Source: an uncultured Candidatus Saccharibacteria bacterium (GTDB lineage Bacteria; Patescibacteriota; Saccharimonadia; Saccharimonadales; 2-12-FULL-41-12). Taken from it: a stretch of DNA of 64,000 nt. Location of the stretch: contig CAZYMH010000002.1 of the NCBI GenBank assembly GCA_964648105.1, forward strand, positions 118,101 to 182,100, given 5' to 3'. The notes beneath the pieces are model-generated. The model saw nothing but the letters and a program-made list of their open reading frames with translations. It had not been told where the DNA came from and did not search any database. How positions within the stretch are numbered: the first letter of the stretch is position 1; the number at the start of each line of letters is the position of its first letter. Below, piece by piece: positions 9,329-27,744 of this stretch. The position numbers were made by a program, and so were the translations under genes.

Positions 9329-9395
9329 GTCACCCTTTCAGATTTATTCATATTCTCTCACTATACACACCTGCGCCCGTGATTGCAACTTATGC

Positions 9396-10259: not shown

Positions 10260-10278
10260 CGACTCATGGTGAGATCAC

Positions 10279-10779
10279 TCACTCGCGTATCCGATTCACG
10301 ACGTAGAACGGCATCCCGGAGTGTTGCTCAAATCCGAGTCGAATCAGTGCATGGTGAAGCTCTTGATTGAGTTGAGTGATGCACGCCACCCCACGGAGTG
10401 GAGATTCCGGGCGACGACGGTTGAGGCTGTCGGCGAAGTCGAAGCCATGTCTTACCAGCCGGGCAAATGCTGGGGTATTCTGGAACGCCCTATCTACACC
10501 AACGGCAGGGACGAGCAGATAGCGCCCTATCGCATCTGATCCTGGAACGGTCAGTTCAATCTCGGAGAGAGCGATGTAGGCGATGACCTCGCGATCGGGT
10601 CTTGCCAGGGCGTAGGCGGTTGCGCCGCCGCCGGATAGGAGCTCGGAGTGGAGAGCACGAAGCTCCGCGTTGAACGCCTCGCTTCCACAATCAAAGCGAT
10701 CGACTATGTGGTGCGTGCAGAGATTCTCCAGGTTGAGATCAGATGGCAGCAAGAAAGGCGTCCCTATCCCATTCCCCAA
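10279..10779 (-). CDS. GNAT-fold protein resembling TacT/KacT-type acetyltransferase toxins (acetyl-CoA motif degenerate)
   Basis: The N-terminal DRFDCGSEAFNAELRAL matches the F-x-C-G-x-x-x-L-N/D-x-x-L signature. The later VGVDRAFQNTPAFARLV lacks the usual Q/RxxGxG/A. Confidence 0.5.
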   Translation of the reverse strand: MGNGIGTPFLLPSDLNLENLCTHHIVDRFDCGSEAFNAELRALHSELLSGGGATAYALARPDREVIAYIALSEIELTVPGSDAIGRYLLVPAVGVDRAFQNTPAFARLVRHGFDFADSLNRRRPESPLRGVACITQLNQELHHALIRLGFEQHSGMPFYVVNRIRE

Positions 10780-11566
10780 CCCGCGCCAGTCGGTACCGCA
10801 GCTCCCGTGCCTGCGCCTCGGTCACCTCGCCGCTCCATCCGGCGAGCCGGATCAGTCCTTCGGCGCTGAACTCCGCCTCGCCGTGGAGGATGGCGCTGCC
10901 GTAACGCACCAAGTAGCGGTCGAGGTTGGTCAAGAGCCGAGCCAGGAACCACAGGGCGCCGCCAGCCGCCTCTTGGAAGCGGGCGTCCTCGCCTTCGACG
11001 TCCCGCCACCGTTCTCGCTCGATGAGCTCGGCCCGGAGTCCGTAGACATCGCTCCAGATCCGGCTCAGGAGCACCTCGTGCTCAGCGCGCTCCGGATCTG
11101 CGAGGTCTTCGGGCTCGATCGTCGGGGTATCGCCGGAGGCTTCGGCGGGAGGCTGCTTCCGTCCCCGGGGCACGTACGTCAGCGAGTCCTGGTGCAGGAG
11201 CCACGCGAGGTCACTCAGGATCTTGGGCTCGATGCGCTTCCGAAAGTGGTCGGCGTCGTAGCCAAGGGCTGAAGCGGCGCTCTGGCGCCGGGTGGTCAGG
11301 TTCTGGCCACTGGTGCCGCCAATGCCGAAGAGCGCCTGTGCTGCCGCCTGACGGTCCCGTCCCCCGGGGAGCCGGCGCAGCTGCTGTCGAGCGAGCTTGT
11401 CGAGGGCGGCGACTTGGGCCAGCTGATCGTCCGGGTTCACCGCTCGGGCTGCAACGCCTCGCAGATCGAGGAGGCGCTCATCAGCGGTGTCGGGGGTGAT
11501 AGGCAAGCCGCGTCTCAGGGTCGTCCGGAGGGCGGAGACGAGCGGATCGAGGTCCGGTTCGGCCAT
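10739..11566 (-). CDS. Hypothetical protein (275 aa), first gene of cargo operon
   Basis: The internal ATG at 11566 is preceded by GGAGGAG. The ORF-track extension up to 11773 is Arg/Pro/Cys-rich and unlikely to be coding. The gene overlaps the GNAT gene start by 41 nt. Confidence 0.5.
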   Translation of the reverse strand: MAEPDLDPLVSALRTTLRRGLPITPDTADERLLDLRGVAARAVNPDDQLAQVAALDKLARQQLRRLPGGRDRQAAAQALFGIGGTSGQNLTTRRQSAASALGYDADHFRKRIEPKILSDLAWLLHQDSLTYVPRGRKQPPAEASGDTPTIEPEDLADPERAEHEVLLSRIWSDVYGLRAELIERERWRDVEGEDARFQEAAGGALWFLARLLTNLDRYLVRYGSAILHGEAEFSAEGLIRLAGWSGEVTEAQARELRYRLARVGEWDRDAFLAAI

Positions 11567-11752
11567 CTCCTCCGTCCAGTTGCGGTTCAGCGGCGCAACC
11601 GTACTACGGGCGGCGGCCGTTCCGAACCTGGACGGACGAGCAGGACGCCCAGGATGTGCCCACTCGCACGCCTGGAGAGTGCCCAGTCCCGGGTCGCATC
11701 CTCTGGCCCAGATCGGTTCAACAGGAGAACCGCACGGGCTGGCGAGGGATGC

Positions 11753-12061
11753 ATGTCGAACCTCATTCCCCAAGGTCTTGGGCCTTCGGGTCTGCCTGCC
11801 CGGGTGGAGCGTCAGCTCTCCCGGCAGGTGGCCACGATTCAGGCCAGGGCGGTCGTTCAGGCGGCTCAGCAGTCGTCGAAGGTGGCGGTGATCGAGGAGG
11901 TGGTGGAGTCGGCGATGCTGGCTACCGCCCGTGTCGGTCAGCTGGAGGGGCTGCTTAGTGCCCAGACTCCGGAGGTTGCCGGGCGGCTGCGGTTCATCGC
12001 TGAGGCCGGCGCCCTCGGGATGGGCGGGGTCGTCCAGCAGACCGCCCGGAAGGTGATGTAG
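11753..12061 (+). CDS. Hypothetical protein (102 aa), first gene of transfer-side operon
   Basis: ATG within the 11414-12061 frame. Ala/Gln-rich helical sequence. It is followed 2 nt later by the next ORF. Confidence 0.45.
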   Translation: MSNLIPQGLGPSGLPARVERQLSRQVATIQARAVVQAAQQSSKVAVIEEVVESAMLATARVGQLEGLLSAQTPEVAGRLRFIAEAGALGMGGVVQQTARKVM

Positions 12062-12063
12062 CC

Positions 12064-12285
12064 ATGTTCATCCTGGGCTTCATCGTTGGGGCTGTGGTGA
12101 TCGCCGCGGTGTTCGTCGCCCTGGTGCACCTGGTCGGGCGGAACGAGGAGTCGCCGCAGATGGCGGCGCTGTTGGCCCGTCGCCGGATCGATGAGCTGGA
12201 GCGGCAGACGATCGCGCGGATGCTGCGTGAGGCGGAGATCCAGCGTGGCTTTGGCGGTGACTTCATCGAATCGGACGCCTCATGA
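12064..12285 (+). CDS. Small single-TM protein
   Basis: MFILGFIVGAVVIAAVFVALVHLV... followed by a charged tail. ATGA overlap with the next ORF. Confidence 0.5.
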   Translation: MFILGFIVGAVVIAAVFVALVHLVGRNEESPQMAALLARRRIDELERQTIARMLREAEIQRGFGGDFIESDAS

Positions 12286-12440
12286 AGCTCTACGGCCCAC
12301 TGGTTCAAGGGCTCCTGGTGCTCATGGTCTTTGCCGTGGCGGTGCGAGCGGTGTGGGAGCTGCTCGCACCGGCCCTGATGCCCATGAGCATCGTGGCCGT
12401 GGTGGTCACCGCCCTCGTGGCGCTATGGAAGCGACGGTGA
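12282..12440 (+). CDS. Small two-TM protein (52 aa, below ORF-track cutoff)
   Basis: MKLYGPLVQGLLVLMVFAVAVRAVWELLAPALMPMSIVAVVVTALVALWKRR. Start is coupled (ATGA) to the previous stop. Confidence 0.45.
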   Translation: MKLYGPLVQGLLVLMVFAVAVRAVWELLAPALMPMSIVAVVVTALVALWKRR

Positions 12441-12662
12441 CGCGTGCTCGCGCCGAGCGTTCACAAGGCCTGTATGGAGCGCGTTCACCGCTTCGAGCCG
12501 GTGCTTGTTGTCAATTCCACATGCACAAACGTCTTGACTGTCGTGCGTGTGCGACGCATAACAACAAGTAGGGGTTGTCCATGTTGGGCATCGCACCGCA
12601 GGAGTGTGCGGCGGGCGGTGGGCATGGACGCCCCTTGTATGTGTAAGTGGAGGGACTCATGG

Positions 12663-13247
12663 ATGAGACAGATCGAGGAGGGGAACGGACTCCCTGAAGG
12701 GCTGGCGGTACCGACCGCCGATCAGGTGTTCATGGAGCTGCAGCTGGTCACCCGGCGGCTGCGCAGCGTGCAGCGGCTCATCGGGCCGCTGGCGGTCAGC
12801 GAAGCCGGTCCGGAGTGGGCCGAGCTGCAGGAGCACTGTCAGGTGGCGCTGGGCGCACTCAGCGTGGCCGGGGCGATGGTGCCGGATGCGCTGCCCGAGC
12901 ATGAGCGGACTTCGCGTGTCCTGGTCGTCCGGGATCTGACAGTGGATCAGCATGCTCACCGGGCATGGTTCGGAGAGCAGGAATTGGAGCTGGCCGGGTT
13001 GGAGTTCGGCCTGCTCGGCGCCTTGGCAATCGACCCGCTGCGCGTCCGTTCCAAGCAGGAGCTGCTGCGCAGCGTGTGGGGGTATCGCGGCACGCCGCGT
13101 ACCCGCACGGTGGACAGCCACGCCTCGCGGCTTAGGCGAAAGCTCATCGACGCTGGTGCCGGGGGCCATGAGTGGGTGGTCAACCAGTGGGGCGTCGGAT
13201 ACGCCCTGCTGCGGCCAGCCGAGATCTCCGGGGAGGTGCCCCGGTGA
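12663..13247 (+). CDS. Winged-helix (OmpR/Trans_reg_C-type) DNA-binding protein
   Basis: GGAGGG lies 8 nt before the ATG at 12663. The C-terminus LELAGLEFGLLGALAIDPLRVRSKQELLRSVWGY...RTVDSHASRLRRKL...VVNQWGVGYAL is a Trans_reg_C pattern. Confidence 0.7.
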   Translation: MRQIEEGNGLPEGLAVPTADQVFMELQLVTRRLRSVQRLIGPLAVSEAGPEWAELQEHCQVALGALSVAGAMVPDALPEHERTSRVLVVRDLTVDQHAHRAWFGEQELELAGLEFGLLGALAIDPLRVRSKQELLRSVWGYRGTPRTRTVDSHASRLRRKLIDAGAGGHEWVVNQWGVGYALLRPAEISGEVPR

Positions 13248-13420
13248 CCCGACGCAGTGTTCGCGTGCGCCCCATTCCGAGAACCAACGTCGATGTGCCG
13301 AGGCTCAGCCGGGCGCTGTTGGCCATGGCGCGGGAGCTGGAGGCACAGGCCGACGAGGACGCTGCCCAGGCCCGGGAGCAGCAGGTAACGGTGTCGCCTT
13401 CGACGGAGGAGGCGGCGTGA
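13244..13420 (+). CDS. Small hypothetical protein (58 aa)
   Basis: GTG start overlaps the previous stop (GTGA), and its own stop overlaps the next GTG start. Confidence 0.4.
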   Translation: MTRRSVRVRPIPRTNVDVPRLSRALLAMARELEAQADEDAAQAREQQVTVSPSTEEAA

Positions 13421-15669
13421 TCGGCGTCGCGGTCTTCGTGGTGGCGGCCCTGGTCATCGTCGGACTGGTTGCGGCAGCTCGAGCGCTTGACGCGGCTACC
13501 TGGCGAAAAGGACTGGTCGTCTACCGCGTCCGCTTTCCCAGAGGCGTGAAGGCCGAGCAGGTGGCGTCCTGGTTGTCGGCGTTGCCTCCCTCTTCAGGGG
13601 TGCTCGGCCAGGCCCCCATTGGACTGGAGGTGACGGCCACCGAGGCGGGCATCGTCCACCATCTGCTGCTGCCCAAGAAGCAGGCCGAGACCCTGTGCGT
13701 TCAGCTCCAGACGGCCATCGGCGGCGTGCGCTTGGAGAAGACCGACAAGGAAGTCCTGGGCGCCGCGAGCCAAATGCGAGGGGTTGAGCTGCGGGCGACG
13801 TCGCGGAGCTTCCCGCTGGCGGTTGACCGTGTGGAGTCCTCGGCCGCCGCCTTGCTGGCCTCATTAGTGCCGCTATCGCGCGGTGAGGTGATACGGCTGC
13901 AGTGGCTGCTTGTCGGTGCACCTGTTCCGGGGGTGGTGCGGCGTCGGAAGAAGAACGACTCAACGTTCGACCTTGGCCGGCTGTCGGACAGCGAGGAGCT
14001 GCGGGGACTTCGCCAGAAGCACAGTGCGCTGCTGCTCAACGCGACCCTGCGCGTCGGGGTGACGGCCTCGGGTGAGGGCCGCCGCCGGCAGCTTGTGGCC
14101 CGGGCACGGGCTGGGCTGTCGGTGATGGATGCGCCGGGCATGCGCCTGCGGGCGTCGTGGGTTCCGTCGGGTGTTGTGGTGGAGCGGATCCAGCGGCAGG
14201 TGCTGCCGCTGTTGGTCTGGCCGTTGAGCCTCAACGTTCGGGAACTGGTGGGGCTGCTTGGGGTCCCGATCGGGGAGGTGGACTTGCCGGGACTGTCGCT
14301 GGGGGCGGCCCGACAGGTTGCCGCTCCGGTTGGAGCGCTGCGGCGAGGGGTGCTGGTGGCGCGCAGCGATCACGCCCTGACCTTGGACCGGGAGCTGCGC
14401 CTGGAGGTCGATGACCGGCTCCGGCATCTGCACGTCATCGGGCCGACCGGGGTTGGTAAGAGCACGCTGCTGGCCTCACTGGCCCTGCAGGACATTGCAG
14501 CGGATCGGGCCGTCGTGGTCATCGACCCCAAGCGGGACCTGGTGGAGACCATCCTGCGGCGGGTGCCGGAGAACCGGATCGGTGACGTGGTGGTGCTTGA
14601 CCCGGTGGATCTCTCGCGTCCGGTGGGCCTGAACGTGCTCGCCGGTGGCAGGTCGGTGGTCGGGCAGGAACTGGCGGCCGAGCACCTGCTCGGTGTACTG
14701 CGCGATGTCTTCGCTGAAGCGTGGGGACCGCGGACGGACGATGTTCTTCGCGCGGGCCTAAGAACCCTGACGGCCACCAAGGCCAGGGACGGGTCGCGGT
14801 TCACGCTGTGTGAGCTGCCGGAGCTACTGAGTGATCCGGGGTTCCGACGCTCGGTGCTCTCGCAGCCCTCGGTGCCGGAGGCGCTGCGGGGGTTCTGGCA
14901 GTGGTTCGAGGCGGTCAGCGAAGGCGAACGGGCCTCGGTGGTCGCTCCGCCGCTCAACAAGCTGCGGGCCTTCACCACCAGGACCCCAATCCGCCTGTGC
15001 CTCGGACAGAGCGAGGGGTTCGAGCTGCGGCGGGTGTTCACGGATCGCAAGATCCTGCTGGTGCCGCTCTCGGGAGGGGAGCTCGGGGCAGCGACCTCCC
15101 AGCTGCTGGGCGCCCTGATCGTGGCGGGGTTGTGGCAGGCCACCCTCGCCCGGACTCGCGTCGCTGCCGAGCGGCGTCATCCGGTGTTCGTGTTCCTGGA
15201 TGAGTTCCAGGACATCGTGCGGTTGCCGTTGCCGATCGGCGACATGCTGGCCCAGGCCCGAGGGCTCGGGGTCGGGCTGACGCTGGCCCATCAGTACCTC
15301 GATCAGCTGCCGAGGGACGTGCGCACCGGGGTGATGGGAACGGTGCGGTCCCGGGTGGCCTTCCAGCTCGGACAGGACGATGCCCGACACCTGGAGGCCG
15401 GATTCGCGCCGGCACTGGCCGCGGAGGACCTGCGGGGGCTTCCCGCCTGGCACGTGGCACTGCGAGCCGTTGACCACGGGGAGGTGCTGCGACCGGTCAC
15501 CGGGCGAACCGACCCTCTGGCGGGGCCGAGTCTGGCTGCCGGCGTCGTTGCGCGCCTGAGCCGCGAGGGCTTCGGGACACCGCGTGCGTCGGTGGAACGG
15601 GCTCTGCGAGAGCGGGTCGCCGGAGCGGTTCAGGACGTACCGCTGGGCAGAAAGCGAGACGCAGCGTGA
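13417..15669 (+). CDS. Type IV coupling protein (TraD/VirD4/TcpA-like, TraM-recognition-domain type)
   Basis: GGAGGAGG RBS and an N-terminal TM helix. Walker A is VIGPTGVGKST and Walker B is VFVFLDEFQD. The ORF-track extension from 12952 overlaps upstream genes. Confidence 0.8.
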   Translation: MIGVAVFVVAALVIVGLVAAARALDAATWRKGLVVYRVRFPRGVKAEQVASWLSALPPSSGVLGQAPIGLEVTATEAGIVHHLLLPKKQAETLCVQLQTAIGGVRLEKTDKEVLGAASQMRGVELRATSRSFPLAVDRVESSAAALLASLVPLSRGEVIRLQWLLVGAPVPGVVRRRKKNDSTFDLGRLSDSEELRGLRQKHSALLLNATLRVGVTASGEGRRRQLVARARAGLSVMDAPGMRLRASWVPSGVVVERIQRQVLPLLVWPLSLNVRELVGLLGVPIGEVDLPGLSLGAARQVAAPVGALRRGVLVARSDHALTLDRELRLEVDDRLRHLHVIGPTGVGKSTLLASLALQDIAADRAVVVIDPKRDLVETILRRVPENRIGDVVVLDPVDLSRPVGLNVLAGGRSVVGQELAAEHLLGVLRDVFAEAWGPRTDDVLRAGLRTLTATKARDGSRFTLCELPELLSDPGFRRSVLSQPSVPEALRGFWQWFEAVSEGERASVVAPPLNKLRAFTTRTPIRLCLGQSEGFELRRVFTDRKILLVPLSGGELGAATSQLLGALIVAGLWQATLARTRVAAERRHPVFVFLDEFQDIVRLPLPIGDMLAQARGLGVGLTLAHQYLDQLPRDVRTGVMGTVRSRVAFQLGQDDARHLEAGFAPALAAEDLRGLPAWHVALRAVDHGEVLRPVTGRTDPLAGPSLAAGVVARLSREGFGTPRASVERALRERVAGAVQDVPLGRKRDAA

Positions 15670-16619
15670 GCGCCGATCGCTCTACCGGTCGCGTTGAGTC
15701 CGCTGCGAGCGGATCACCTTGGTCACGCGGCTCCGCCGCGCTTAAGGCCGCCGACTACTACCGAAGTGTTCCTGGTCGTTCTTCATCGGGACGGCGGCTG
15801 AGCGCCCGGCGGTTGGTGCTCATCGCTGAGGAGCTGTCGGAGCGGGACGACGCGGTCCTGCAGGCGTTGGCGCGGGTGCGGGTCCTGACGGGTGCTCAGC
15901 TTGAGCGTCTGCTGTTCTCCGACATCGCGGTGGCTTCCCGTGGGCGGACGCGGCGGCGGGTACTCGGGCGTCTGGTGGACCTGGGGCTGGTGGTCACCTT
16001 GGAGCGCCGCATCGGCGGGGTTCGCGCCGGGTCGGCAGGGCTGGTTTACGGACTCTCGGGCGCGGGACAGAAACTGGCCGGGCGGGCGGTGGCCGGTGGG
16101 TCTTCGCCTCGGCCCAGAACCACGGCCACGCCCTCGGCCTTGTTTCTGGCCCACGCCCTGGCGGTCGCCGAAGCGTACGTCGCCACCATGGAAGCGCTGC
16201 GGGGAGTCCCTGGGGTGGCGCTCGCCGGGTTCGACGTGGAGCAGAACGCCACCTGGCCGACGGGGCGTGGGCCGAAGGACCTCCTCCGGCCGGACGCCCT
16301 GGTGGTGCTGACCCGGGAGGAAGTCTCGGACGTCTGGTGGCTGGAGGTCGACCGGGACACCGAGAGCCTGCCAAGGATCGTCCGCCTGCTGCGGCGCTAC
16401 CTGGCGTTCGCCCGCTCCGGACAGGCGGGACCGCGTGGCGTGGTCCCGAGGATGCTGCTCAGTGTCCCCAGCCCGGACCGCCTGGCAGGCGTGCAGACCG
16501 AGATCGCCCGGCTGCCGGCGCCAGCCGCGCAGCTGTTCGCGGTCTGCATGGAGTCCGAGGTGGCTGCGCTGCTGGTAAGCGAGATTTTGGACGACGGCTC
16601 ACCAGTAAGGGAGGCGTAG
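15666..16619 (+). CDS. Replication-relaxation family protein (putative relaxase/initiator of the element)
   Basis: LTGAQLERLLFSD...RRVLGRLVDLGLVVTLERRIGGVRAGSAGLVYGLSGAG matches the Replic_Relax winged-helix N-terminus. GTGA coupling to the T4CP gene. Confidence 0.65.
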   Translation: MSADRSTGRVESAASGSPWSRGSAALKAADYYRSVPGRSSSGRRLSARRLVLIAEELSERDDAVLQALARVRVLTGAQLERLLFSDIAVASRGRTRRRVLGRLVDLGLVVTLERRIGGVRAGSAGLVYGLSGAGQKLAGRAVAGGSSPRPRTTATPSALFLAHALAVAEAYVATMEALRGVPGVALAGFDVEQNATWPTGRGPKDLLRPDALVVLTREEVSDVWWLEVDRDTESLPRIVRLLRRYLAFARSGQAGPRGVVPRMLLSVPSPDRLAGVQTEIARLPAPAAQLFAVCMESEVAALLVSEILDDGSPVREA

Positions 16620-16759
16620 TCATCACTGGACGGATCGTTGTCCATTTCACACGACATTCGTGTTGACGGCGGAACTAATGGCCATGGGACAATGTATGTA
16701 CACACATACCAACCAACGCTTCGCTCATTCGTGAAGCAGAAGGGCACGACGGACGACGT

Positions 16760-17164
16760 ATGACGGCATCCCATCCCCAGTCGAGTTCAGGAAGACACAC
16801 GGACCCGGTGCGGCTGGAAGGCGTCCTGAAGACCGCTCGGGAACAGCAGGGGCTGTCGATCCGTCGTCTTGCTCAGCGTGTTGGTGTCCACCACGCCAGT
16901 CTTGCCCGCATTGAACTGGGTGAGCAGCATCCTTCGACCGGAACTCTTCGCAAGCTGGCCGGAGTGCTGGAACTCGATGAGACGGACCTGTTCGCCTTGG
17001 CCGGCTACCAGCCGCCGGAGCTCCTGCCGTCGTTCCCGGCCTACCTGCGGGCCAAGTACAACATGCCGCCAGAGGCCACCGAGCAGCTCAATGAGTACTT
17101 CAGCTACCTCGCCGAGAAGTACGACATCACGCCGGATGACGCCGAACCACCGACCCAGCGGTAA
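16760..17164 (+). CDS. XRE-family HTH transcriptional regulator
   Basis: LKTAREQQGLSIRRLAQRVGVHHASLARIELGE is an HTH_3 pattern. Confidence 0.8.
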   Translation: MTASHPQSSSGRHTDPVRLEGVLKTAREQQGLSIRRLAQRVGVHHASLARIELGEQHPSTGTLRKLAGVLELDETDLFALAGYQPPELLPSFPAYLRAKYNMPPEATEQLNEYFSYLAEKYDITPDDAEPPTQR

Positions 17165-17229
17165 CCGGCCAGCTCTTCTTCTTTCGCCTCACCACTCTTC
17201 ACTAACAACAATGAAAGGAGGTCATTCTC

Positions 17230-17916
17230 ATGACCATCAACAACACCACACCAGGCAGCGTGCTCGGCTTGCTTCGAGCGCTCATGCCGCCACGGGCCCT
17301 GGAGGTCCACGAAGCCGAAGGCGTCGCTGAACGTCAAGCCCTCAAGCTGCTGTCGCTACTGGACCAGCATTCGCCGGCCGTCGACGTGGCGGCGATCGCC
17401 GAGCTGCCGCGCATCGAGGTGCGGGTCGAGCCGAGGCTGCCGGTGTCCGGGTTCTCGCAGTGGAGCCGCGGGCGGTGGCTGATCGGCATTAACCAGGACG
17501 ACGCCCCAGTGCGCCGCCGGTTCACGCTCGCGCACGAGTTCAAGCACGTCCTGGATCACCCGTTCATTGATGGCGCCTACCTGGACCGCCGCAGACGACC
17601 ATCCGACGCCAGAGCCGAGGCGATCTGCGACGTCTTCGCAGCCTGCCTGCTGATGCCCCGGCCATGGGTCAAACAGGCCTGGATCGGGGGCATCCAAGAC
17701 CAACGAGCCTTGGCCCAGCTGTTCGGGGTCTCTGAGGCGGCGATGGCGCTACGGCTGCGGCAACTCGGGATCACCGGGCCACGCAGCCGCTGGACGAACC
17801 TCACCGGAGAGGACTCCGGAGGCGTTGGCCGCTACTTCCGACGTCCTGCGTCGTCCGTGTCGCTGACAGCGGCTAGGGTCGGGATTCGGTTGCCGGTCAT
17901 GAGCGGAGGCAGCTAG
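17230..17916 (+). CDS. ImmA/IrrE-family metallopeptidase
   Basis: HEFKH zinc-binding motif (LAHEFKHVLDH) immediately downstream of the XRE gene. This is the classic ICE/prophage induction pair. Confidence 0.8.
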   Translation: MTINNTTPGSVLGLLRALMPPRALEVHEAEGVAERQALKLLSLLDQHSPAVDVAAIAELPRIEVRVEPRLPVSGFSQWSRGRWLIGINQDDAPVRRRFTLAHEFKHVLDHPFIDGAYLDRRRRPSDARAEAICDVFAACLLMPRPWVKQAWIGGIQDQRALAQLFGVSEAAMALRLRQLGITGPRSRWTNLTGEDSGGVGRYFRRPASSVSLTAARVGIRLPVMSGGS

Positions 17917-17918
17917 CG

Positions 17919-19802
17919 ATGCACCAGGAAGAAACACCCATGGAGCCCACGGCGGACGGTGGTTCGGTGGCGGTGCCGACGAAGACCGCGGTGATCTACC
18001 TGCGGGTCTCGACCTCGGCACAGGCCGACACCGACTACAGCAGCGAGGGGTACTCCATCCCGGCCCAGCGGGAGGCCTGCCGGCGCACCGCTGAGAATCT
18101 CGATGCCCGGGTGGTGGAGGAGTACGTCGACCGGGGGGAGAGCGCTCGCTCGGCTGACCGGCCAGCTCTGCTGTCCATGCTGGAGCGGCTGCGGACCCAG
18201 CGGGACGTCGACTACGTCATCGTCCACAAGGTCGACCGCTTGGCCCGGAACAGGGCCGATGACATTGAGATCGCCCTGGCGATTCGCAGTGCCGGGGCGG
18301 CGCTGGTGTCGGCCACCGAGAACATCGACACCACCCCCTCGGGGGCCTTGCTACACGGGATCATGGCCACCATCGCCGAGTTCTACTCGCAGAACCTGGC
18401 GGCGGAGGTCAGGAAGGGCCTGCTGCAGAAGGTCCGCCTCGGGGGCACACCGACCCGTGCGCCGCTTGGGTACCTGAACGTCATCGACCGGGTTGAGGGC
18501 CGTGAGATCCGCAGCGTGCGGACGGATCAGGAGCGGGCCCCGCACATCCAGTGGATGTTCGAGGCCTACGCCTCAGGGGACTACCTCATCCGAGAACTCG
18601 CCGACGAACTGGCAGAGCGAGGACTCCGGACCCGGCCCACACCGAAGCGACCGACCGGCGTGCCGGTGACCACCTCCATGGTCGAGCGGATGCTCGCCAA
18701 CCCGTACTACGTCGGGGTGGTGCTGTTCGAGGGGGTGGAGTACCAGGGCCGGCACGAGCCACTGATCTCCCGGGAGCTGTTCGAGGCGGTACAGACCTTG
18801 AAGGCATCCCGGCGCCTGTCCAAGGAGAAGCCCTACCAGCATCCGCACTACCTCAAGGGCACGGTGTTCTGCGGAACCTGCGGTGAACGGCTCGGGGTGA
18901 TGAAGGCCCGGAACCGTCACGGCCAGACCTACCCGTATTTCTACTGTTTGGGTCGGCAGAAGCACCGGACCCGGTGCGACCAGCCCTACGTCTCCATCGA
19001 CGTTGTGGAAGACCGCGTCGAGGCCCTGTGGCAGTCAGTGGTCCTGCCGGAGGATGTCTGTGCAGCCATCCGTCGGGCGGTACTGGATCTCGCCGGGCGA
19101 ATGCATGTCGAACAAGCCCAGGAGATCGACCGACAGGCCAAGGCTCTGGCACGCCTGGACTCCGAGCGAGAGAAGCTGCTCCAGGCCCACTACGCCGGTG
19201 CCGTTCCCCTGGACCTCCTCAAGCGGGAGCAGGAGCGGATCGCGCGGGAGATGGCCCGGGCCGAGAGCATCACCGGTCGACTGAACGCCGAGATCGGGGA
19301 CGTGGAGCGCGGGCTGGAGGAGGCACTGGGGCTCCTCGGTGACGCCAACCGGCTCTACCAGCTGGCACCACATCACATCCGACGCCAGCTCAACCAGGCC
19401 GTCTTCGAACGCATCCTGGTCGACAGCGATTCCATGCCCTACGGGCGCCTGGCGGCACCCTTCGGGCAACTGCTGGAGCTGGCGGAACGGACCGAGACAC
19501 GGAACGTCGAGGAGCAGGTCGCCGAGGAGCGACTCCAGCGCTACCTGCGCACCGGACCACCGCGAAGACGAAGCCGCAAGGCGATGGAAGCTGCCGTCGC
19601 GCGGATCTTGGGCGACGGCGAGGGCGGGGCCATCACGACGAACAGCTCCGAAAACGACGAGAACCCCGACCGATCTGCGATCGGCCAGGGTTCAAACGTC
19701 GTACTAATGGCGGAGAGAGAGGGATTCGAACCCTCGGTACCGTTGCCGGCACGACGGTTTTCAAGACCGTTTCCTTCAACCACTCGGACATCTCTCCATT
19801 GA
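17919..19802 (+). CDS. Large serine recombinase (integrase of element 1); last ~30 codons lie in tRNA-Ser antisense sequence
   Basis: VIYLRVSTSAQ catalytic-Ser N-terminus, a recombinase domain, a zinc ribbon (CGTCGERL...YYCLGRQKHRTRCDQPY) and a coiled-coil region. The frame has no stop before the junction at 19707/19708. Confidence 0.9.
   Translation: MHQEETPMEPTADGGSVAVPTKTAVIYLRVSTSAQADTDYSSEGYSIPAQREACRRTAENLDARVVEEYVDRGESARSADRPALLSMLERLRTQRDVDYVIVHKVDRLARNRADDIEIALAIRSAGAALVSATENIDTTPSGALLHGIMATIAEFYSQNLAAEVRKGLLQKVRLGGTPTRAPLGYLNVIDRVEGREIRSVRTDQERAPHIQWMFEAYASGDYLIRELADELAERGLRTRPTPKRPTGVPVTTSMVERMLANPYYVGVVLFEGVEYQGRHEPLISRELFEAVQTLKASRRLSKEKPYQHPHYLKGTVFCGTCGERLGVMKARNRHGQTYPYFYCLGRQKHRTRCDQPYVSIDVVEDRVEALWQSVVLPEDVCAAIRRAVLDLAGRMHVEQAQEIDRQAKALARLDSEREKLLQAHYAGAVPLDLLKREQERIAREMARAESITGRLNAEIGDVERGLEEALGLLGDANRLYQLAPHHIRRQLNQAVFERILVDSDSMPYGRLAAPFGQLLELAERTETRNVEEQVAEERLQRYLRTGPPRRRSRKAMEAAVARILGDGEGGAITTNSSENDENPDRSAIGQGSNVVLMAEREGFEPSVPLPARRFSRPFPSTTRTSLH
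19708..19713. repeat. TGGCGG junction core, right copy (element 1), equals the CCGCCA 3' end of tRNA-Ser(UGA)
   Basis: Identical hexamer to 2979-2984. It lies exactly at the GC-rich to tRNA transition. Confidence 0.6.
19708..19797 (-). tRNA. tRNA-Ser (anticodon UGA), type II, CCA encoded
   Basis: The reverse complement GGAGAGATGTCCGAGTGGTTGAAGGAAACGGT-CTTGAAA-ACCGT...CGAGGGTTCGAATCCCTCTCTCTCCGCCA is 90 nt. The last 29 nt are identical to tRNA-Ser(GCU) at 33844-33872. Confidence 0.9.
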
Positions 19803-24131: not shown

Positions 24132-24138
24132 TGGTACA
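24132..24138. repeat. TGGTACA candidate junction core, left copy (element 2)
   Basis: The 7-mer is identical to the tRNA-Arg 3' end at 32964-32970. It lies in a 200-bp ORF-free gap. A chance match is not excluded. Confidence 0.35.
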
Positions 24139-24193
24139 GCATACTAGAGCAGGTTAGGTCATTGTTCCTTGCTTATCATAGGTCAAATGCCCT

Positions 24194-24415
24194 ATGAGCT
24201 ACCCACCCACCATACCTACCTATATAGTCTATACTCCTATCACAATAATATGGGAGCAGATTATGCGTACAATTACGGGCAAAGATTTAGAAGAATGGAA
24301 AGTGGCTTTTGCCAAGTCTGGTATTACATATGACACTGACGAAGAATACCAAGAGGCCATTTATAACTTAGTGGGCTACATTGACACACTTATACGAATG
24401 GATCAGCAGCAATAG
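24194..24415 (+). CDS. Small hypothetical protein (likely starts at the ATG at 24263)
   Basis: ORF track. The internal start MRTITGKDLEEW... is preceded by GGGAG. Confidence 0.3.
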   Translation: MSYPPTIPTYIVYTPITIIWEQIMRTITGKDLEEWKVAFAKSGITYDTDEEYQEAIYNLVGYIDTLIRMDQQQ

Positions 24416-24463
24416 GCGGTGGAAAAAGCGAAAATTAGCTAACCACCGTGCTTACCTATATAG

Positions 24464-24751
24464 TTACAAGCTTTGTTCTTGTAGGCTTATTTTTCCTAAT
24501 GCCCTGTTTCTTTCAGCAGAAAATCGCTCTGCTGCTTCACGAGTCCATACTAGATTCTCATCATCGACTATACCGTGCGGGACTGGCAAGCCACCGGCAT
24601 CTTTTAGCTGACTTACTCGTTGCTTAGAGACGCCGAGTATCTTCGCCAAGCCGCTTTGACTGACAAGTTCCACCGATTCAGTTGCTGGTTCTTGTGACAA
24701 ACGCAATTCGGACATTAAAAATATTCTCTGATTTAGTAACGTATTTTGCAA
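24464..24751 (-). CDS. Small HTH DNA-binding protein (excisionase/regulator-like)
   Basis: GLAKILGVSKQRVSQLKDAGGLPVP is a helix-turn-helix pattern. Confidence 0.5.
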   Translation of the reverse strand: MQNTLLNQRIFLMSELRLSQEPATESVELVSQSGLAKILGVSKQRVSQLKDAGGLPVPHGIVDDENLVWTREAAERFSAERNRALGKISLQEQSL

Positions 24752-24830
24752 GGATAAGCAAAAACAAATACATATTGCCGTTCATTAAATACCGCTTAGG
24801 TGGCTTATATAAGTCCCATTTGAACAACTC

Positions 24831-25550
24831 TTACTTAGGTTGAGTCTGCTCTAACTTAAATACTTCGTGATGCTTCAAGCCAGACTGCTTTTCTATTATT
24901 AAGGGAACTATTTGACTGTTGCTAAACTCTGCATTCGCAGCTGTAATTGAGTCTCTTGTAAACCACTGATACTCAAATTTATCATTATTTTTTGGCATGT
25001 ATTGTTCTGGCAACGAAAGCTTAAAGATATGTGAAATCGTATGATGTACAAATCCATCATCGTATGTAATTATAGCCTCGGCTATGGTTACAAGATTGGG
25101 CTTAGGAGTTTCTTCAGTAAATAAATCTTCTATGACTTTTCCTATATTCTCTAAGGCCGACCTTCCAGCATGATGTAAACCACCAGGCAGCATGTATTCG
25201 TTGAGGTGACTTTTCATACTTCCCGTTCGTTTTGCGACTAAAATTGAGTCGCCTGATAAAATAATGCATTGTACAAGTGGTCTTGGGAGTATTTCTTTCC
25301 CAAGTAAATTTGAACCTGTGTAATTTACCCAACGAGCACCCTTAGTTGTAAGCTGAAATCCATCTTGATGCTTTTCTATCAAACCCCTGTCAATAAGCTT
25401 ATTAGCGTGGTACATGAATAGACTATTTTCAACTCCGTCTTCTTTGAGTTCGCTAAAGCGTATAGGACTTTCGTTAGTGGCTAACTGTTGAATAATCTGT
25501 GCCTGTAAGAAGTGGTCAACGTACTGTTTGGTTAAAAAATCACTTGTCAT
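24831..25550 (-). CDS. Winged-helix domain fused to a degenerate Nudix-fold domain
   Basis: N-terminus IRFSELKEDGVENSLFMYHANKLIDRGLIEK..GFQLTTKGARW is MarR-like wHTH. The C-terminus LVQCIILSGDSILVAKR...LPGGLHHAGRSALENIGKVIEDLF is Nudix-like but lacks the catalytic REx2EE. Confidence 0.45.
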   Translation of the reverse strand: MTSDFLTKQYVDHFLQAQIIQQLATNESPIRFSELKEDGVENSLFMYHANKLIDRGLIEKHQDGFQLTTKGARWVNYTGSNLLGKEILPRPLVQCIILSGDSILVAKRTGSMKSHLNEYMLPGGLHHAGRSALENIGKVIEDLFTEETPKPNLVTIAEAIITYDDGFVHHTISHIFKLSLPEQYMPKNNDKFEYQWFTRDSITAANAEFSNSQIVPLIIEKQSGLKHHEVFKLEQTQPK

Positions 25551-25649
25551 TACATAGCATCATAGCAAAATTTGGTAAAAATGTTTTGACTGCTTTTGTA
25601 CGCCTCCTTAAGTACACTAGCTTCGTAACCTAAGGAAAGGAGTTACTAG

Positions 25650-25982
25650 ATGGAGAAACCAAACCTTAGCAGTGAGCAAGAAGCCCAAACAGTAGAAATA
25701 GTACAGAGACTTGATGGTCAGGATTTTGCGCTTACTCAAAGAATAGAGATACGGCGTAGGGAAGCTCCTCGCAAGATAGGACATGTTGCGATGTCACCAC
25801 GTACTGTAGCACCAGACTCTAGAGATGACTACCTGCCATCGGATGACTTTGACATGCTCCACTATACCGCAGGAGATAGCGATAGAGCATCTAGAACAAC
25901 TAGTAAGCCACGGAATCCTGTTGGCATGAGCGATAACTTCAGCCATGACTTTGATGCACCTTGGTATCAGGGGCGAATATAA
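25650..25982 (+). CDS. Hypothetical protein
   Basis: 110-aa ORF with a GGAAAGGAG RBS-like sequence upstream. No motif recognised. Confidence 0.4.
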   Translation: MEKPNLSSEQEAQTVEIVQRLDGQDFALTQRIEIRRREAPRKIGHVAMSPRTVAPDSRDDYLPSDDFDMLHYTAGDSDRASRTTSKPRNPVGMSDNFSHDFDAPWYQGRI

Positions 25983-26059
25983 GATGTTCAAAATACCCTC
26001 AAATGTATATGAGACCATAAACGTGATACAATACACGAGGATCAATAGGAAAAACAAAA

Positions 26060-27523
26060 ATGAGTGAAAAACCCCTAAATCCAGATGTTAACCTGCAATC
26101 TGATAAGATGGAGGTCTTTGAACGTGGTCGTGAGATTGTCCTTGCTGCACCTCAGTTATATGTAGATGTTGATGTGGAAGCAGACGGCATAGCTGGTCAC
26201 GGCTCCATGCTCTCAATAGGTGCTCAAAGTCCAACAGGCGAATCTTTTTACAGTGAAATACGGCCTATAACCGATGACTTCAAGCCTGGTAATCGAGAAT
26301 TCTGTGAACAACATGGATTACAGAGAGAAAGGTTACTACAAGAAGCTCCTGACGCAACTGAGGTAATGACCAAGTTCCACGCATGGGTAGCTGAGGTTTC
26401 CGAAAAGACTGGCAAACCACCAGTATTTACTGCTTTTAACGCTGCATTTGATTGGGCATTTGTTGACTTATACTTTATCAAGGCTGGCTATGAGAAGAAC
26501 CCTTTCGGAATCGCACCGTTTGACCTTAAATCCCTTGCTCTGCCTCTAACTGGTGAGTGGGACTGGACTCAAACGTCAAAGAATAAACTGCCCCAAATTA
26601 TTATCCCCGAAGGAGACTTTACGCATCATGCACTCGAAGATGCACAATACCAACAAAAGCTTCATTTCGGAATGGCTTCATTATTAGGAGCAAGGAATTA
26701 CCAAGAGAATATTTCTGGAGGTTCCCCTGATACAAATGAAGCTGTTGGCAAACGTGCACAAGAAGTCAACGAAACCTCTATCGAAGAAGAATCTACGAGA
26801 GAAACCGTAGCTAAAATTATTGAGCTTCTACAACGTAACTTTGATGATAGCTATGATGGTGAGACTGTTGGCGGGATACAAGCAAGAGGCGGGCAGTCTC
26901 CACGTATGCAAGCGTTGGAGCAAGAAAGAGACGGTTTAGTACATGAACTATTATCAAACGGAGATATTAACCTACTAGCCTCGGCTTTAGTTGAACAGGG
27001 CTATGGATCAGCCGTATTTAAGTATGGTGAAGATTTAGACATAGATTGGAACGGATTTGGACAAAAATTGTTAGATAATAATAAACCCGAAGAAGTTGCT
27101 AGGCACCTCGACAAGTTTCCGAATGTTGATAGGAATATGCTGGCTAATGCACTAGTGCAAAGAGGAGCTCCCCACTTAATTGTAAGTAATCTTGATGAGT
27201 TTCCAGATATAGACCAGAAAGTACTTACCGCAGGATTGTTAAAATCAGGGAGTGGGTTCACAGATAGTCTTAATGCCGTACTCGCTCGTGATATAGACCG
27301 AGAAGTGCTTGGACAAGACCTCATAAATGCGGGCTACGGAATAAATGTGGTTATGGACAGGCTTGACCAGTTTCCCGAATCTGTCCGAGTAGCTCTTGCT
27401 AAAAATCTAGCACGATACAAATTTGGACAAGATGTGCTTGCACACAACTCAGATAAATTTGTAGGTATAGATATTCAAGAACTTATACATACCGAGCCAA
27501 CAGAGAATACAACCAGCGTATAA
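26060..27523 (+). CDS. DEDD-type 3'-5' exonuclease domain with C-terminal helical-repeat region
   Basis: YVDVDVEADG (Exo I), FNAAFDWAFV (Exo II) and HHALEDAQ (Exo III). The C-terminal half has repeated L..AL...G......NLD.FP.ID units. Confidence 0.6.
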   Translation: MSEKPLNPDVNLQSDKMEVFERGREIVLAAPQLYVDVDVEADGIAGHGSMLSIGAQSPTGESFYSEIRPITDDFKPGNREFCEQHGLQRERLLQEAPDATEVMTKFHAWVAEVSEKTGKPPVFTAFNAAFDWAFVDLYFIKAGYEKNPFGIAPFDLKSLALPLTGEWDWTQTSKNKLPQIIIPEGDFTHHALEDAQYQQKLHFGMASLLGARNYQENISGGSPDTNEAVGKRAQEVNETSIEEESTRETVAKIIELLQRNFDDSYDGETVGGIQARGGQSPRMQALEQERDGLVHELLSNGDINLLASALVEQGYGSAVFKYGEDLDIDWNGFGQKLLDNNKPEEVARHLDKFPNVDRNMLANALVQRGAPHLIVSNLDEFPDIDQKVLTAGLLKSGSGFTDSLNAVLARDIDREVLGQDLINAGYGINVVMDRLDQFPESVRVALAKNLARYKFGQDVLAHNSDKFVGIDIQELIHTEPTENTTSV

Positions 27524-27744
27524 CCCTTTCCTCATCTTTTGCCCTAAAACCCTTCCTACGACCCCTGGAGAGTTCACAGAGGGCGTATAAAACCGTTCAT
27601 CTTTTATTGCTAAAAATTAGTGCGTAATGCTACACAAAATTTTTGGCCAGATTTCCGAACCCTAACGCCATTTTTCATTATTCACCAGCTAACAATTACG
27701 GAACACCACTTTTATTAAAATCATGTGCGAATCAACTAGTTAAT

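Follow-up and report, generated by a model that had tools for sequence, protein, structure and literature searches.

Two large serine recombinase genes that run across their own crossover sites into antisense tRNA: an overlap of protein tail, attachment site and putative terminator shared by two integrase families

In the 64,000-nucleotide stretch of Saccharibacteria DNA analysed here (hereafter the window), two integrative elements each carry a large serine recombinase (LSR) gene that crosses the site of recombination and reaches its stop codon only within the antisense strand of the tRNA gene into which the element has inserted. A preliminary description of this DNA had claimed as much, and both the quoted tails, which match exactly, and every coordinate proved right. 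The layout of ORF, attP and tRNA is no oddity of the window, and is common to two large integrase families in which the reading frame is conserved, the codons of the P arm are constrained at the level of DNA and the hairpins embedded in them covary. We consider it probable that the overlap exists chiefly because it binds the integrase gene, attP and the mending of the tRNA's 3' flank together so that they cannot be separated, and that the accompanying exchange of protein tails is a tolerated by-product which at most modulates activity. The elements, their recombinases and their host tRNAs are as follows.

2985 to 19707: element 1, 65-70% GC, a putative integrative conjugative or mobilizable element
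17919 to 19802, plus strand: LSR1, the element 1 large serine recombinase in its integrated form, 627 aa, the last 31 codons of which, from 19708, are antisense tRNA-Ser
19708 to 19797, minus strand: host tRNA-Ser(tga), found by ARAGORN and Rfam; B' arm of attB1
24139 to 32963: element 2, 8.8 kb, host-like GC, with its LSR gene at the right end
31371 to 33029, plus strand: LSR2, the element 2 large serine recombinase in its integrated form; counted from the ATG at 31371 it has 552 aa, of which the final 19 are antisense tRNA-Arg
32964 to 33040, minus strand: host tRNA-Arg(gcg), found by ARAGORN and Rfam; B' arm of attB2

The LSR2 ORF opens at 31332, upstream of its ATG, and the final 6 nt of tRNA-Ser(tga) (CCGCCA) are now supplied by element 1; Rfam matched no family at the junction regions besides the tRNAs. 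A domain search places Resolvase, Recombinase and Zn_ribbon_recom domains in both proteins, with PF00239 at E 3e-32 in LSR1 and 3e-21 in LSR2 and matches of both to PF07508 and PF13408, and the nucleophilic serine of the R-x-S-T motif (S31 in LSR1, S21 in LSR2) is invariant in both family alignments. Only serine recombinase domains were detected, and catalysis is not of the tyrosine-recombinase type. AlphaFold2 predicts paired long helices at 358-405 and 411-453, and the top Foldseek matches are the SPbeta, Bxb1 and phiC31 integrases, SPbeta matching over the full length at E 2e-18. As part of an overall explanation that we find reasonably likely, LSR1 and LSR2 would be functional large serine recombinases from two distantly related clades of integrative elements. 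The two elements had initially been taken for unrelated-looking, a view that does not survive: their recombinases are distant homologues (25% identity, E 1e-28), apparently cut the tRNA at the same position, and gene order is shared with relatives in the LSR2 family. Besides a C5 methylase and LSR1, element 1 encodes the following.

12952 to 15669: T4 coupling-protein-like ATPase (T4SS-DNA_transf/TrwB-like)
15666 to 16619: Replic_Relax
16760 to 17164: HTH regulator (HTH_3), intact, 2.5 kb from the junction
17230 to 17916: M78 peptidase

An element 1-like order of T4CP, Replic_Relax, HTH, M78 and LSR recurs in contigs L001, L005 and L006, LSR2-family relatives among them; within the 8.8 kb of element 2 neither a coupling protein nor a relaxase was recognised. 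Single-protein and alignment scans of IMG/VR returned almost nothing for LSR1 or LSR2, and this near-absence from viral contigs argues that the elements are not phage-like. A second copy of element 1, with 99.8% identity, lies in a contig of 72-76% GC, which implies recent transfer across phyla.

Insertion of element 1 is marked by the junction repeats TGGCGG at 2979-2984 and 19708-19713, and that of element 2 by TGGTACA at 24132-24138 and 32964-32970. The element ends share just these 6-7 nt, and the displaced tRNA fragment of tens of nucleotides that characterises classical Islander-type insertions is absent. The attachment sites can be laid out from these junctions.

19689 to 19713: P arm of attP1, from GGTTCAAAC at 19689-19697 (codons G-S-N, a T-arm-like motif) to the core TGGCGG at 19708-19713
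2979 to 3010: attL of element 1, core TGGCGG at 2979-2984 and P' arm at 2985-3010, including GGTTGAACC at 3000-3008
32950 to 32970: P arm of attP2, CGTCTAGAATGG and the core TGGTACA at 32964-32970
24132 to 24197: attL of element 2, core TGGTACA at 24132-24138 and a P' arm with CTAGAGCAGGTTAGGTC at 24144-24160
attR1 sequence: GTCGTACTAATGGCGGAGAGAGAGG
attL1 sequence: CTTAGTTTGGCGGCCCTCGCGCG
attB1 sequence: CTTAGTTTGGCGGAGAGAGAGGG
attP1 sequence, reconstructed: GTCGTACTAATGGCGGCCCTCGCGCG
attP2 sequence, reconstructed: CGTCTAGAATGGTACAGCATACTAGAG

We infer that crossover takes place at GG 19712-19713 in attP1 and at AC 32968-32969 in attP2, each corresponding to tRNA nt 71-72, and the two recombinases appear to cut at the same tRNA position. 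With its dinucleotide so placed, reconstructed attP2 reads TCTAGAATGGT-AC-AGCATACTAGA, and the TGG of its core is at once the codon of the invariant W532 and the antisense of CCA; reconstructed attP1 and the attP of a relative (contig L123) are symmetric around the presumed GG, the arms of attP1 nearly so. Exact searches of IMG/VR with reconstructed attP1 and attP2 gave no match. The earlier proposal that each integrase gene contains its crossover site near its own 3' end, such that integration swaps the C-terminal 20-30 residues, is confirmed, the exchange involving 19-30 residues. It forms a further part of the same, fairly probable overall explanation that both clades insert at the extreme 3' end of the tRNA (around nt 71-72, in the acceptor stem), and that recombinase and tRNA genes are convergent.

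Surveys of 80 relatives per LSR yielded complete 3' ends for 75 members of the LSR1 (Actinomycetota) family and 54 of the LSR2 (Patescibacteria) family, while single scans of the two clades confirmed more than 450 and more than 550 relatives. Antisense tRNA is entered by 63 of the 75 and 40 of the 54 complete 3' ends (74-84%), far above chance, so that the stop-less layout, which the preliminary description had suggested seeking in other tRNA-targeting LSRs, is found throughout both families. Ten tRNA types are used in each, and the reading frame into the tRNA is conserved in 51/63 members of the LSR1 family and 33/40 of the LSR2 family. At the protein level, 106/120 LSR1 homologs have tails with the antisense T-arm peptide G[FLIV]EP and 59/120 LSR2 homologs a tRNA-like tail. 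The family-wide nature of the trait was absent from the preliminary description, as was the putative antisense tRNA terminator within the same codons.

Homolog alignments offered a means of finding out whether the protein really ends well before the junction, and it does not. In the LSR2 family the conserved fold reaches the junction, with W532 invariant and the last predicted helix ending at or spanning it. The C-terminal 70-100 residues of LSR1 are low-complexity and poorly conserved; the variable linker of its family is nonetheless open and in frame to the attP motif in 52/53 cases, where one third would be expected by chance, which a purely passive model leaves unexplained: something selects translation to, or through, attP. 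Several of the conserved C-terminal residues are attributable to constraint on the DNA. Seven relatives with 40-70% amino-acid identity all use identical CGT CTA codons; in the LSR1 family, GGTT[CT]NANN stands 19 nt before the tRNA end at 53/64 junctions while the peptide it encodes varies between GSN, GLN, GSS, GLS, GLK and GFS; and conservation of the A-run peaks at third codon positions. Conserved C-terminal peptides that would otherwise be puzzling (GSN, KASEEA and the invariant W) are explained by such overlapping codes. In the actinobacterial clade of LSR1 the T-arm-like attP motif lies 4-5 bp farther from the crossover than the real T-arm does in attB, and the model of LI integrase likewise sets an attP motif 4-5 bp farther out than its attB counterpart (PMC3783163). 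The zinc ribbon of these LSRs may accordingly be what recognises the tRNA T-arm.

The codons that approach the crossover also hold, on the opposite strand, hairpins that can be compared with the native terminator of tRNA-Ser.

19661 to 19693, minus strand: hairpin in the LSR1 ORF, 15-bp stem, tail TCGTCGTTTT, 14 nt beyond the 3' end of tRNA-Ser, z -5.85
2954 to 2970, minus strand: native tRNA-Ser(tga) terminator hairpin, followed by TTTTT, z -6.5
32929 to 32955, minus strand: hairpin in the LSR2 ORF, AGAGCC-TCAAGAA-GGCTCT then TTTTTC, in codons K-K-S-L-L-E-A-L

Insertion has separated tRNA-Ser from its native terminator, which now stands at attL at a distance of 16.7 kb. In LSR1 both hairpin arms are coding and specify the conserved N-P ... 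G-S-N peptide; the LSR2 hairpin lies about 10 nt beyond the 3' end of tRNA-Arg, and across the families such hairpins begin 8-14 nt past the tRNA end, with mean z against shuffles of -1.75 in the LSR2 family and -3.3 in the LSR1 family. In the LSR2 family RNAalifold finds compensatory changes in 4/5 pairs and an invariant TTTT, the structure of the element 2 hairpin itself being taken from RNAfold and RNAalifold. For the LSR1 family misalignment of the 3' arm by MAFFT left RNAalifold with no structure to report; with the helix set by hand, pairs counted and 7 out-of-register rows scored as broken, 7/11 pairs show compensatory changes, a score reached by 0/500 shuffles. A terminator scan calls a terminator from 19693 to 19661 in element 1. 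It did not call the element 2 hairpin, likely on account of a G-T extension of the stem that consumes part of the T-run. G-U pairs are commoner on the tRNA strand (53 vs 26, and 131 vs 81); many sites on the LSR-sense strand of the AT-rich family also score in a hairpin-plus-T scan (22 vs 15 of 39), so that assignment of the hairpins to a strand rests on this G-U asymmetry and the position of the T-run. Both embedded hairpins are best regarded as candidate replacement intrinsic terminators for the tRNAs.

Under the explanation we favour, the last 25-35 codons would encode the C-terminus of the recombinase and would also constitute the P half-site of attP, including the 4-6 nt (discriminator and CCA) from which the tRNA end is restored; for the actinobacterial clade the half-site would add the T-arm-like motif shifted by 4-5 bp, as expected for a motif read by an LSR zinc ribbon, and the opposite strand of the same codons would provide a hairpin terminator in place of the native one left at attL. 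With the crossover upstream of the stop codon, integration must swap the P'-encoded tail for an antisense-tRNA tail that runs to the first chance stop.

The reconstructed circular frames bear out the tails and stops previously predicted for the excised forms: LSR1 continues ...GSNVVLM-AALARLRLNLNTPSQSASPRPRRDRANRG to the TAG at 3068-3070, the P' arm of element 1 encoding a tail that would begin AALARLRLN..., and LSR2 continues ...LEWY-SILEQVRSLFLAYHRSNAL to the TGA at 24195-24197. A variant of LSR1 (P0255) considered as a natural circular form was rejected, since its last 70 residues differ and it looks like a separate rearrangement. Integrated tails span 2-66 aa in one family and 9-497 aa in the other, and the frame to which each family is locked makes them neither the shortest nor the longest available, a test for minimising or maximising having given no signal; they look unselected. 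The circular tails raise another reading, in which the P'-encoded tail is functional, as a helix extension or C-terminal peptide, and its replacement lowers or changes activity or stability, stabilising the integrated state or making excision require a directionality factor, as reported for IntP versus IntX of Mx8. The conserved frame through the LSR1-family linker would suit it, as would the precedent of the Mx8 tyrosine integrase (PMC6070905, PMC4383910), and so would the LSR2-family P' tail itself, where the motif [IL]L[DE][QE]VRT is common to relatives down to ~30% identity with some synonymous variation (GTT/GTC/GTG and AGA/CGA). AlphaFold2 models an unintegrated-type homolog with a helix at 516-550 that crosses the junction (pLDDT ~90 at 531-540), and integrated LSR2 with a helix at 518-533 that stops there and is followed by a disordered tail; the circular tail of the Patescibacteria family is thus predicted to lengthen the last helix by ~17 residues, which fits a functional difference between the circular and integrated forms of LSR2. 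Yet the 20-25 bp P' half-site and the T-arm-like DNA motif fall on the very codons of the conserved tail residues, so that constraint on the DNA can explain their conservation; at least two types of P' tail (SILEQVRS vs TVVKEVQK) occur among close relatives; and integrated tails may be as short as 2 aa or run to hundreds, in elements that must still excise. Disorder and degradation tags were among the features to be checked in the alternative tails: disorder is predicted for integrated LSR2, and a search for ssrA-like (-AA) tags found none in the four tails, which end ...TSLH, ...ANRG, ...ALSS and ...SNAL. A regulatory switch like that of Mx8 IntP/IntX is possible, and we think it rather unlikely as the main explanation. 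More doubtful still is its fullest version, a sensor of state in which the extended helix or C-terminal peptide of the circular, full-length enzyme is needed for efficient attP x attB synapsis, and the clipped, junk-tailed integrated enzyme is poor at (re-)integration and excises only with a partner factor; a switch like that of Mx8 would then have arisen in the unrelated serine family, been conserved in two phylum-level clades and been linked to the reading of features common to all tRNAs, by which the elements pass between phyla.

We consider it improbable that the junctions or the host have been misread, whether because the tRNAs belong to the elements, because recombination takes place farther inside the tRNA, as it does for tyrosine-integrase islands, or because a chimeric assembly has put high-GC element 1 next to Saccharibacteria DNA. 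The window assembly is of unknown quality, and contigs of the same strain from Logan (L169 and L170) that span the region end at 19735 within tRNA-Ser, 27 nt from the junction, and do not confirm the join. Against this, contig L001 stays identical at the right end of element 1 as far as ...CTAATGGCGGAGAG, beyond which it enters a different tRNA-Ser; it matches the window to TGGCGGAGAG and diverges beyond, a separate insertion of the same element. Past the element end the two share at most 10 contiguous nt, and the element ends share only TGGCGG, stretches not long enough for k-mer overlap to have caused a mis-join at both ends. Contig L171 and the window likewise part directly after TGGTACACG. 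The duplication amounts to only 6-7 nt, with no displaced tRNA fragment. At the left junction of element 1 GC jumps from 38% to 67%, and the host tRNA-Ser's own terminator hairpin lies directly outside, adjoining attL. Unintegrated relatives, moreover, hold a contiguous attP within the LSR ORF: that of L123 (...CTTATGGCGGCCCTAG...) has a join identical to reconstructed attP1, and those of L005, L006 and L010 (CGTCTAGAATGG-N9-CTAGAnCAGGTTAGr) agree with the reconstruction for element 2. Together with the near-symmetric arms of attP1, these observations uphold the junction coordinates originally assigned. A read-through artefact, in which translation in fact terminates sooner, or the open frames are due to chance in GC-rich DNA with few stops and to permissive gene calling, and the extension into the tRNA means nothing biologically, is largely refuted and in our judgement highly improbable: the poorly conserved, low-complexity end of LSR1 and our estimate that ~70-codon frames stay open by chance in about a quarter of cases at 65-70% GC would favour it, but the Patescibacteria family, at 40% GC, shows an identical layout with conserved sequence and predicted helices up to the junction, the LSR1-family attP motif is in frame far more often than the third expected, and no in-frame stop precedes the junction in 63/75 and 40/54 relatives.

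Parallels exist in several known systems. In myxophage Mx8, attP lies within the integrase coding sequence, the target is tRNA-Asp, and integration creates a new 3' end and C-terminus (PMC6070905, PMC4383910). The likeness to the present elements extends to all three points; Mx8 Int, however, is of the tyrosine type, its common core is long and the trait concerns one phage, whereas here LSRs of two families share a core of 6-7 bp and the codons also carry the putative antisense tRNA terminator. The fusellovirus (SSV1-type) integrases also have attP in the int gene and target tRNA genes (PMC4383910). Those enzymes are archaeal tyrosine recombinases, and integration divides their gene into two large pieces; the exchange described here is confined to the last 20-30 codons and leaves the core of the enzyme whole. 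Among serine recombinases, relevant sections of Ghinet et al. 2011 describe Mycobacterium AICEs in tRNA-Leu and call the insertion of such serine-recombinase elements into a tRNA gene rare (PMC3218068), and those of Mageeney et al. 2020 list 14/297 S-Int islands at t(m)RNA genes and call for experimental proof (PMC7192596). The AICEs are, on that account, likewise actinobacterial integrative conjugative elements with a serine recombinase and a tRNA gene target; overlap of ORF and attP, C-terminal exchange, an embedded terminator and a T-arm mimic are not described in those sections (PMC3218068, PMC7192596). In the integration-dependent immunity of mycobacteriophages, attP lies inside a gene and integration alters the C-terminus of its product (PMC8092301). 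The parallel drawn with it in the preliminary description is an analogy only: there attP sits in the repressor gene, the integrase is of tyrosine type and ssrA-like tags are removed, whereas here attP sits in the recombinase ORF, the HTH gene at 16760-17164 is undisturbed and all four tails lack a terminal -AA.

The canonical serine integrases (SPbeta, Bxb1, phiC31, A118/LI) resemble LSR1 and LSR2 in domain set, predicted fold, short att sites and the 4-5 bp motif shift. They mostly target and disrupt protein-coding genes, unlike the present recombinases, which target the 3' ends of many different tRNA genes and preserve them, and we know of no canonical serine integrase with attP inside its own int ORF. 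In phage lambda, attP lies between int and the downstream sib element, so that integration likewise changes what follows int at the 3' end of its message; sib provides the int mRNA with an RNase III site and Int itself keeps its sequence, whereas in the present elements it is the protein that is altered, and the hairpin apparently acts on the other strand.

Targeting of tRNA genes by serine integrases, called rare or unproven in the sections cited above (PMC3218068, PMC7192596), is here systematic in two large clades, each of which uses 10 tRNA types at one fixed position and preserves the tRNA. Within 25-35 codons a protein tail, a recombination half-site, a tRNA 3' end and an antisense terminator appear to be served together, and in annotation the stop-less integrase tails of such LSRs should be taken as real. 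Integrases able to read what is conserved in tRNAs while sparing the gene could give genome engineering ready landing sites across phyla, and the presence of a 99.8% identical element in Saccharibacteria and in a genome of 72-76% GC suggests that so wide a host range is used in nature. If it is true that the tail swap alters activity, it would provide a simple and portable way for a serine integrase to sense its own integration.

Both large serine recombinases (LSRs) of the window contain Resolvase, Recombinase and Zn_ribbon_recom domains, and both reading frames, as the preliminary description had it, cross into antisense tRNA sequence with the tails it reported, stopping inside tRNA-Ser and tRNA-Arg; its coordinates were all correct on re-checking.

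17919-19802, plus strand: LSR1 ORF, 627-aa protein, ending within tRNA-Ser(tga)
19708-19797, minus strand: tRNA-Ser(tga), called by ARAGORN and Rfam
2985-19707: element 1, a block of 65-70% GC amid DNA of ~40% GC
2979-2984 and 19708-19713: TGGCGG, the only sequence shared by the ends of element 1
31332/31371-33029, plus strand: LSR2 ORF, 552 aa counted from the second ATG, ending within tRNA-Arg(gcg)
32964-33040, minus strand: tRNA-Arg(gcg), called by ARAGORN and Rfam
24132-24138 and 32964-32970: TGGTACA, the only sequence shared by the ends of element 2
32906-32914 and 24152-24160: copies of the T-arm-like GGTT[AC]GAAC, also at matching positions in the relatives L005, L006, L010 and L028

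Joining the element ends reproduced the circular-form frames predicted earlier, with stops at 3068-3070 (element 1) and 24195-24197 (element 2). The two elements had been called unrelated-looking, but their recombinases are distantly homologous (25% identity over 398 aa, E 1e-28) and the elements of LSR2-family relatives have the gene order of element 1 (coupling-protein-like ATPase, Replic_Relax, HTH, M78 peptidase, LSR), an arrangement common to actinobacterial and Patescibacteria elements; the two are therefore not unrelated. An HTH_3 regulator and an M78 (ImmA/IrrE-like) peptidase lie directly upstream of the LSR gene (window 16760-17916; L001, L005, L006), and element 1 also encodes a C-5 cytosine DNA methylase (6134-7435; PF00145, E 3e-55). 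Element 2 (24139-32963) spans only 8.8 kb, with no recognisable coupling protein or relaxase. Among its gene products are one of 487 aa with an Rv2179c-like exonuclease domain, a DUF7347/NUDIX-like protein and several that match no family.

The right junction of element 1 is supported by a copy of LSR1, 100% identical up to the junction, that adjoins a different tRNA-Ser(gga) in DNA of 72-76% GC on contigs L001 and L002. The copies of the element in the window and L001 (L001 1-6973) are 99.77% identical over 6973 nt, and identity continues through ...CTAATGGCGGAGAG and gives way to divergence there, so the tRNA is the host's and crossover falls within the last few nucleotides of its gene. Directly outside the left end stands the host tRNA-Ser terminator (hairpin plus TTTTT, 2970->2954, z -6.5), now 16.7 kb from its own tRNA. 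A relative on L123 has a contiguous attP, CAGGGTTCGAACGTCGCACTTATGGCGGCCCTAGTGGGACAACGTTCGAACCTG, whose arms form a clear inverted repeat and whose centre, ATGGCGG-CCCT, reproduces the join of the reconstructed attP1. L123 is a 4.15-Mb contig from Acidimicrobiia, and the site (7380-7560), intact and highly symmetric, falls within its LSR ORF; the element there is either not integrated through this site or an episomal form collapsed by assembly. For element 2, the reconstructed attP2 contains TCTAGAATGGT-AC-AGCATACTAGA, and the contiguous attP of the unintegrated relatives L005, L006 and L010 reads CGTCTAGAATGG-N9-CTAGAnCAGGTTAGr. LSR2-family attP regions carry GGTT[AC]GAAC (codons V-R-T) twice in direct orientation: the upstream copy, ~57 nt before the crossover and beyond a normal LSR half-site, is kept in nearly all relatives, and the second lies 15-23 nt downstream, in the P' arm.

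Two observations concern the surroundings of element 1. Independent Logan contigs from this strain (SRR13355620, SRR13355622) break off within tRNA-Ser(tga), 27 nt away from the junction (L170 1-160 = window 19735 onward); a branch of the assembly graph at that point would fit either a repeat or a mixture of occupied and empty sites. Just left of the element, at 2785-2940 (plus strand), is a strongly structured host region of ~155 nt (MFE -84 kcal/mol for 2775-2985, z -5.9, long closing stem) with no Rfam or ARAGORN call. It ends ...CUCUCCACCA and includes a stretch of 15 nt that matches the antisense 3' portion of tRNA-Ser(tga) exactly; candidate identities are an unknown ncRNA and a degenerate remnant derived from a tRNA.

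Running into a tRNA gene is the rule in both families. The 3' ends were surveyed in DNA of 80 relatives per LSR (genome contigs for LSR1, metagenome contigs for LSR2), and complete ends enter antisense tRNA in 63 of 75 cases in the LSR1 family and 40 of 54 in the LSR2 family, using ten tRNA types in each; several of the remainder have tRNA-like tails nonetheless, uncalled by ARAGORN. Within each family most tRNA ends fall in the same codon phase (51/63 and 33/40, respectively). Actinomycetota relatives of LSR1 end in ...GSNVxLL-AEREGFEPS, ...LVPPTGFEP or ...VELRGFEPLTPSMRT, which are translated antisense tRNA T-arms, a signature found in 106 of 120; relatives of LSR2 from Saccharibacteria and other Patescibacteria end in ...LRLEW[YCQ]-xx[DE]SN... 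or a very short tail, with a minority carrying a non-tRNA tail such as TILDQVRSLYLL. The preliminary description had considered that the functional protein might end well before the junction, with read-through absent in relatives. Instead, conservation in the LSR2 family reaches the junction, with W532 invariant, and a Foldseek alignment of the entire LSR2-family model spans the whole of SPbeta integrase (E 2e-18); in the LSR1 family recognisable domains stop near residue 520 and give way to a variable linker, but at 52 of 53 distinct junctions the attP motif still shares the reading frame of the N-terminal part.

The last codons double as attP arm and tRNA end. The invariant W codon of the LSR2 family, TGG, is the antisense of CCA, and the conserved L/M-V/A of the LSR1 family (xTG Gxx) arises because it is likewise antisense of CCA. 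Two codons before W, R-L is written CGT CTA in every one of seven relatives of LSR2 (40-70% identity). At 53 of 64 LSR1-family junctions GGTT[CT]NANN stands 19 nt before the tRNA end; the peptide differs (GSN, GLN, GSS, GLS, GLK, GSK, GFS), and outside this motif GGT accounts for only 12.5% of the Gly codons of these genes. A motif kept despite a varying peptide, the scarcity of GGT and the uniform CGT CTA place the constraint on the DNA. Placing the crossover of element 1 at the GG of 19712-19713 would render the P and P' arms almost symmetric; the distance from the centre to the start of the GGTTC motif is then 23.5 bp in P and 24.5 bp in P', against 19.5 bp for the true T-arm motif (B', the tRNA arm of attB), a shift of 4-5 bp like that described for the zinc-ribbon motifs of LI integrase (PMC3783163). 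From the sequences we infer that both LSRs cut at tRNA nucleotides 71-72.

The same stretch holds a hairpin on the tRNA strand, 8-14 nt beyond the tRNA end in nearly all relatives.

19693->19661, minus strand: element 1 hairpin, called by the terminator scan, z -5.85
32953->32935, minus strand: element 2 hairpin, followed by TTTTTC

Its usual form in the LSR2 family is GCCTC-TTCG-GAGGC then TTTTT; by RNAalifold, 4 of the 5 pairs show compensatory changes and TTTT is invariant. In the LSR1 family it is an 11-bp helix with compensatory changes in 7 of 11 pairs, a covariation reached by 0 of 500 shuffles and scoring lower in slid controls. Stability exceeds that of shuffles (mean z -1.75 for LSR2, -3.3 for LSR1), and the tRNA strand has about twice the G-U pairs of the LSR strand. 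What appears as conserved peptide, NP...GSN in LSR1 and K-A-S-E-E-A in LSR2, is just the pair of hairpin arms read as codons. With the native terminator stranded at attL, the left element end, the simplest reading is that the hairpin would be a replacement for it, supplied by the element.

Integration must exchange the P'-encoded tail for antisense-tRNA codons, read to the first chance stop. Integrated tails look unselected: they run from 2 to 66 aa (LSR2 family) or 9 to 497 aa (LSR1 family), stop within the tRNA in 22 of 40 and 35 of 63 cases, and in the frame used are neither the shortest nor the longest possible. Circular-type tails share [IL]L[DE][QE]VRT across the LSR2 family, even in L084 at ~30% identity, and AAL...R[LS]NL between window and L123 in the LSR1 family. 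These residues overlap the P' half-site and the T-arm-like DNA motif (GGTTAGrAC, GTTCGAACC); synonymous variation in their codons (GTT/GTC/GTG; AGA/CGA) hints at protein-level selection on the circular tail too. Close relatives can also have an alternative P' tail, TVVKEVQK. No ssrA-like tag was found at the ends of the four tails (integrated and circular, both LSRs). Separately, a close LSR2 relative (L171 4060-4160; P0176), ~95% identical by eye, has a different non-tRNA tail, TVVKEVQKTINS..., of a type also present in a relative at 59% identity; it may be a second P' arm type or an alternative target. A DUF4411/M78 gene pair and then pyrimidine-synthesis genes follow this LSR gene.

We consider it probable that the overlap serves mainly to keep int, attP and the repair of the 3' flank of the tRNA in one package, and that the tail swap is a by-product which is tolerated and at most modulates activity. 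A real Mx8-like switch through tail exchange is a good deal less likely. AlphaFold2 places the last helix of the integrated window LSR2 at 518-533 (residues 534-552 with pLDDT below 50) and predicts one at 516-550 in the unintegrated-type homologue P0131, ~17 residues beyond the junction and with pLDDT ~90 for 531-540; this modelled extension would favour a switch, as does the maintained frame of the LSR1 linker, a feature left unexplained by the passive model. That the read-through is an artefact, or the junctions wrong or chimeric, is improbable even when these are taken together, and a chimeric origin of element 1 is unlikely since the sequence shared at either of its junctions amounts to at most 10 nt.

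An attP inside int that alters the C-terminus is established for the Mx8 and SSV1 integrases (PMC4383910, PMC6070905), but those are tyrosine integrases and ours large serine recombinases. Serine recombinases at tRNA genes have been called rare: eight mycobacterial AICEs are integrated in tRNA-Leu (PMC3218068), and Mageeney et al. count 14 of 297 islands, describe the usage as to their knowledge not previously reported and call for experimental proof (PMC7192596). Our full-text literature search, of incomplete coverage, found neither clade described, nor any serine integrase ORF that spans attP, nor an embedded tRNA terminator.

Judged by sequence, the host is a Saccharibacterium; the best named matches of its DEAD-box helicase are Ca. 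Saccharibacteria/Saccharimonadales at ~63% identity, and LSR2 homologues are from Patescibacteria. The LSR1 family is found in Actinomycetota and a 99.8% identical copy of element 1 lies in the 72-76% GC DNA of L001 and L002, presumably actinobacterial, which points to a recent cross-phylum transfer of the intact integrative element. Such a transfer is plausible, as Saccharibacteria in culture have Actinomycetota for hosts, and the targeting of a universal tRNA feature would make the jump between phyla possible.
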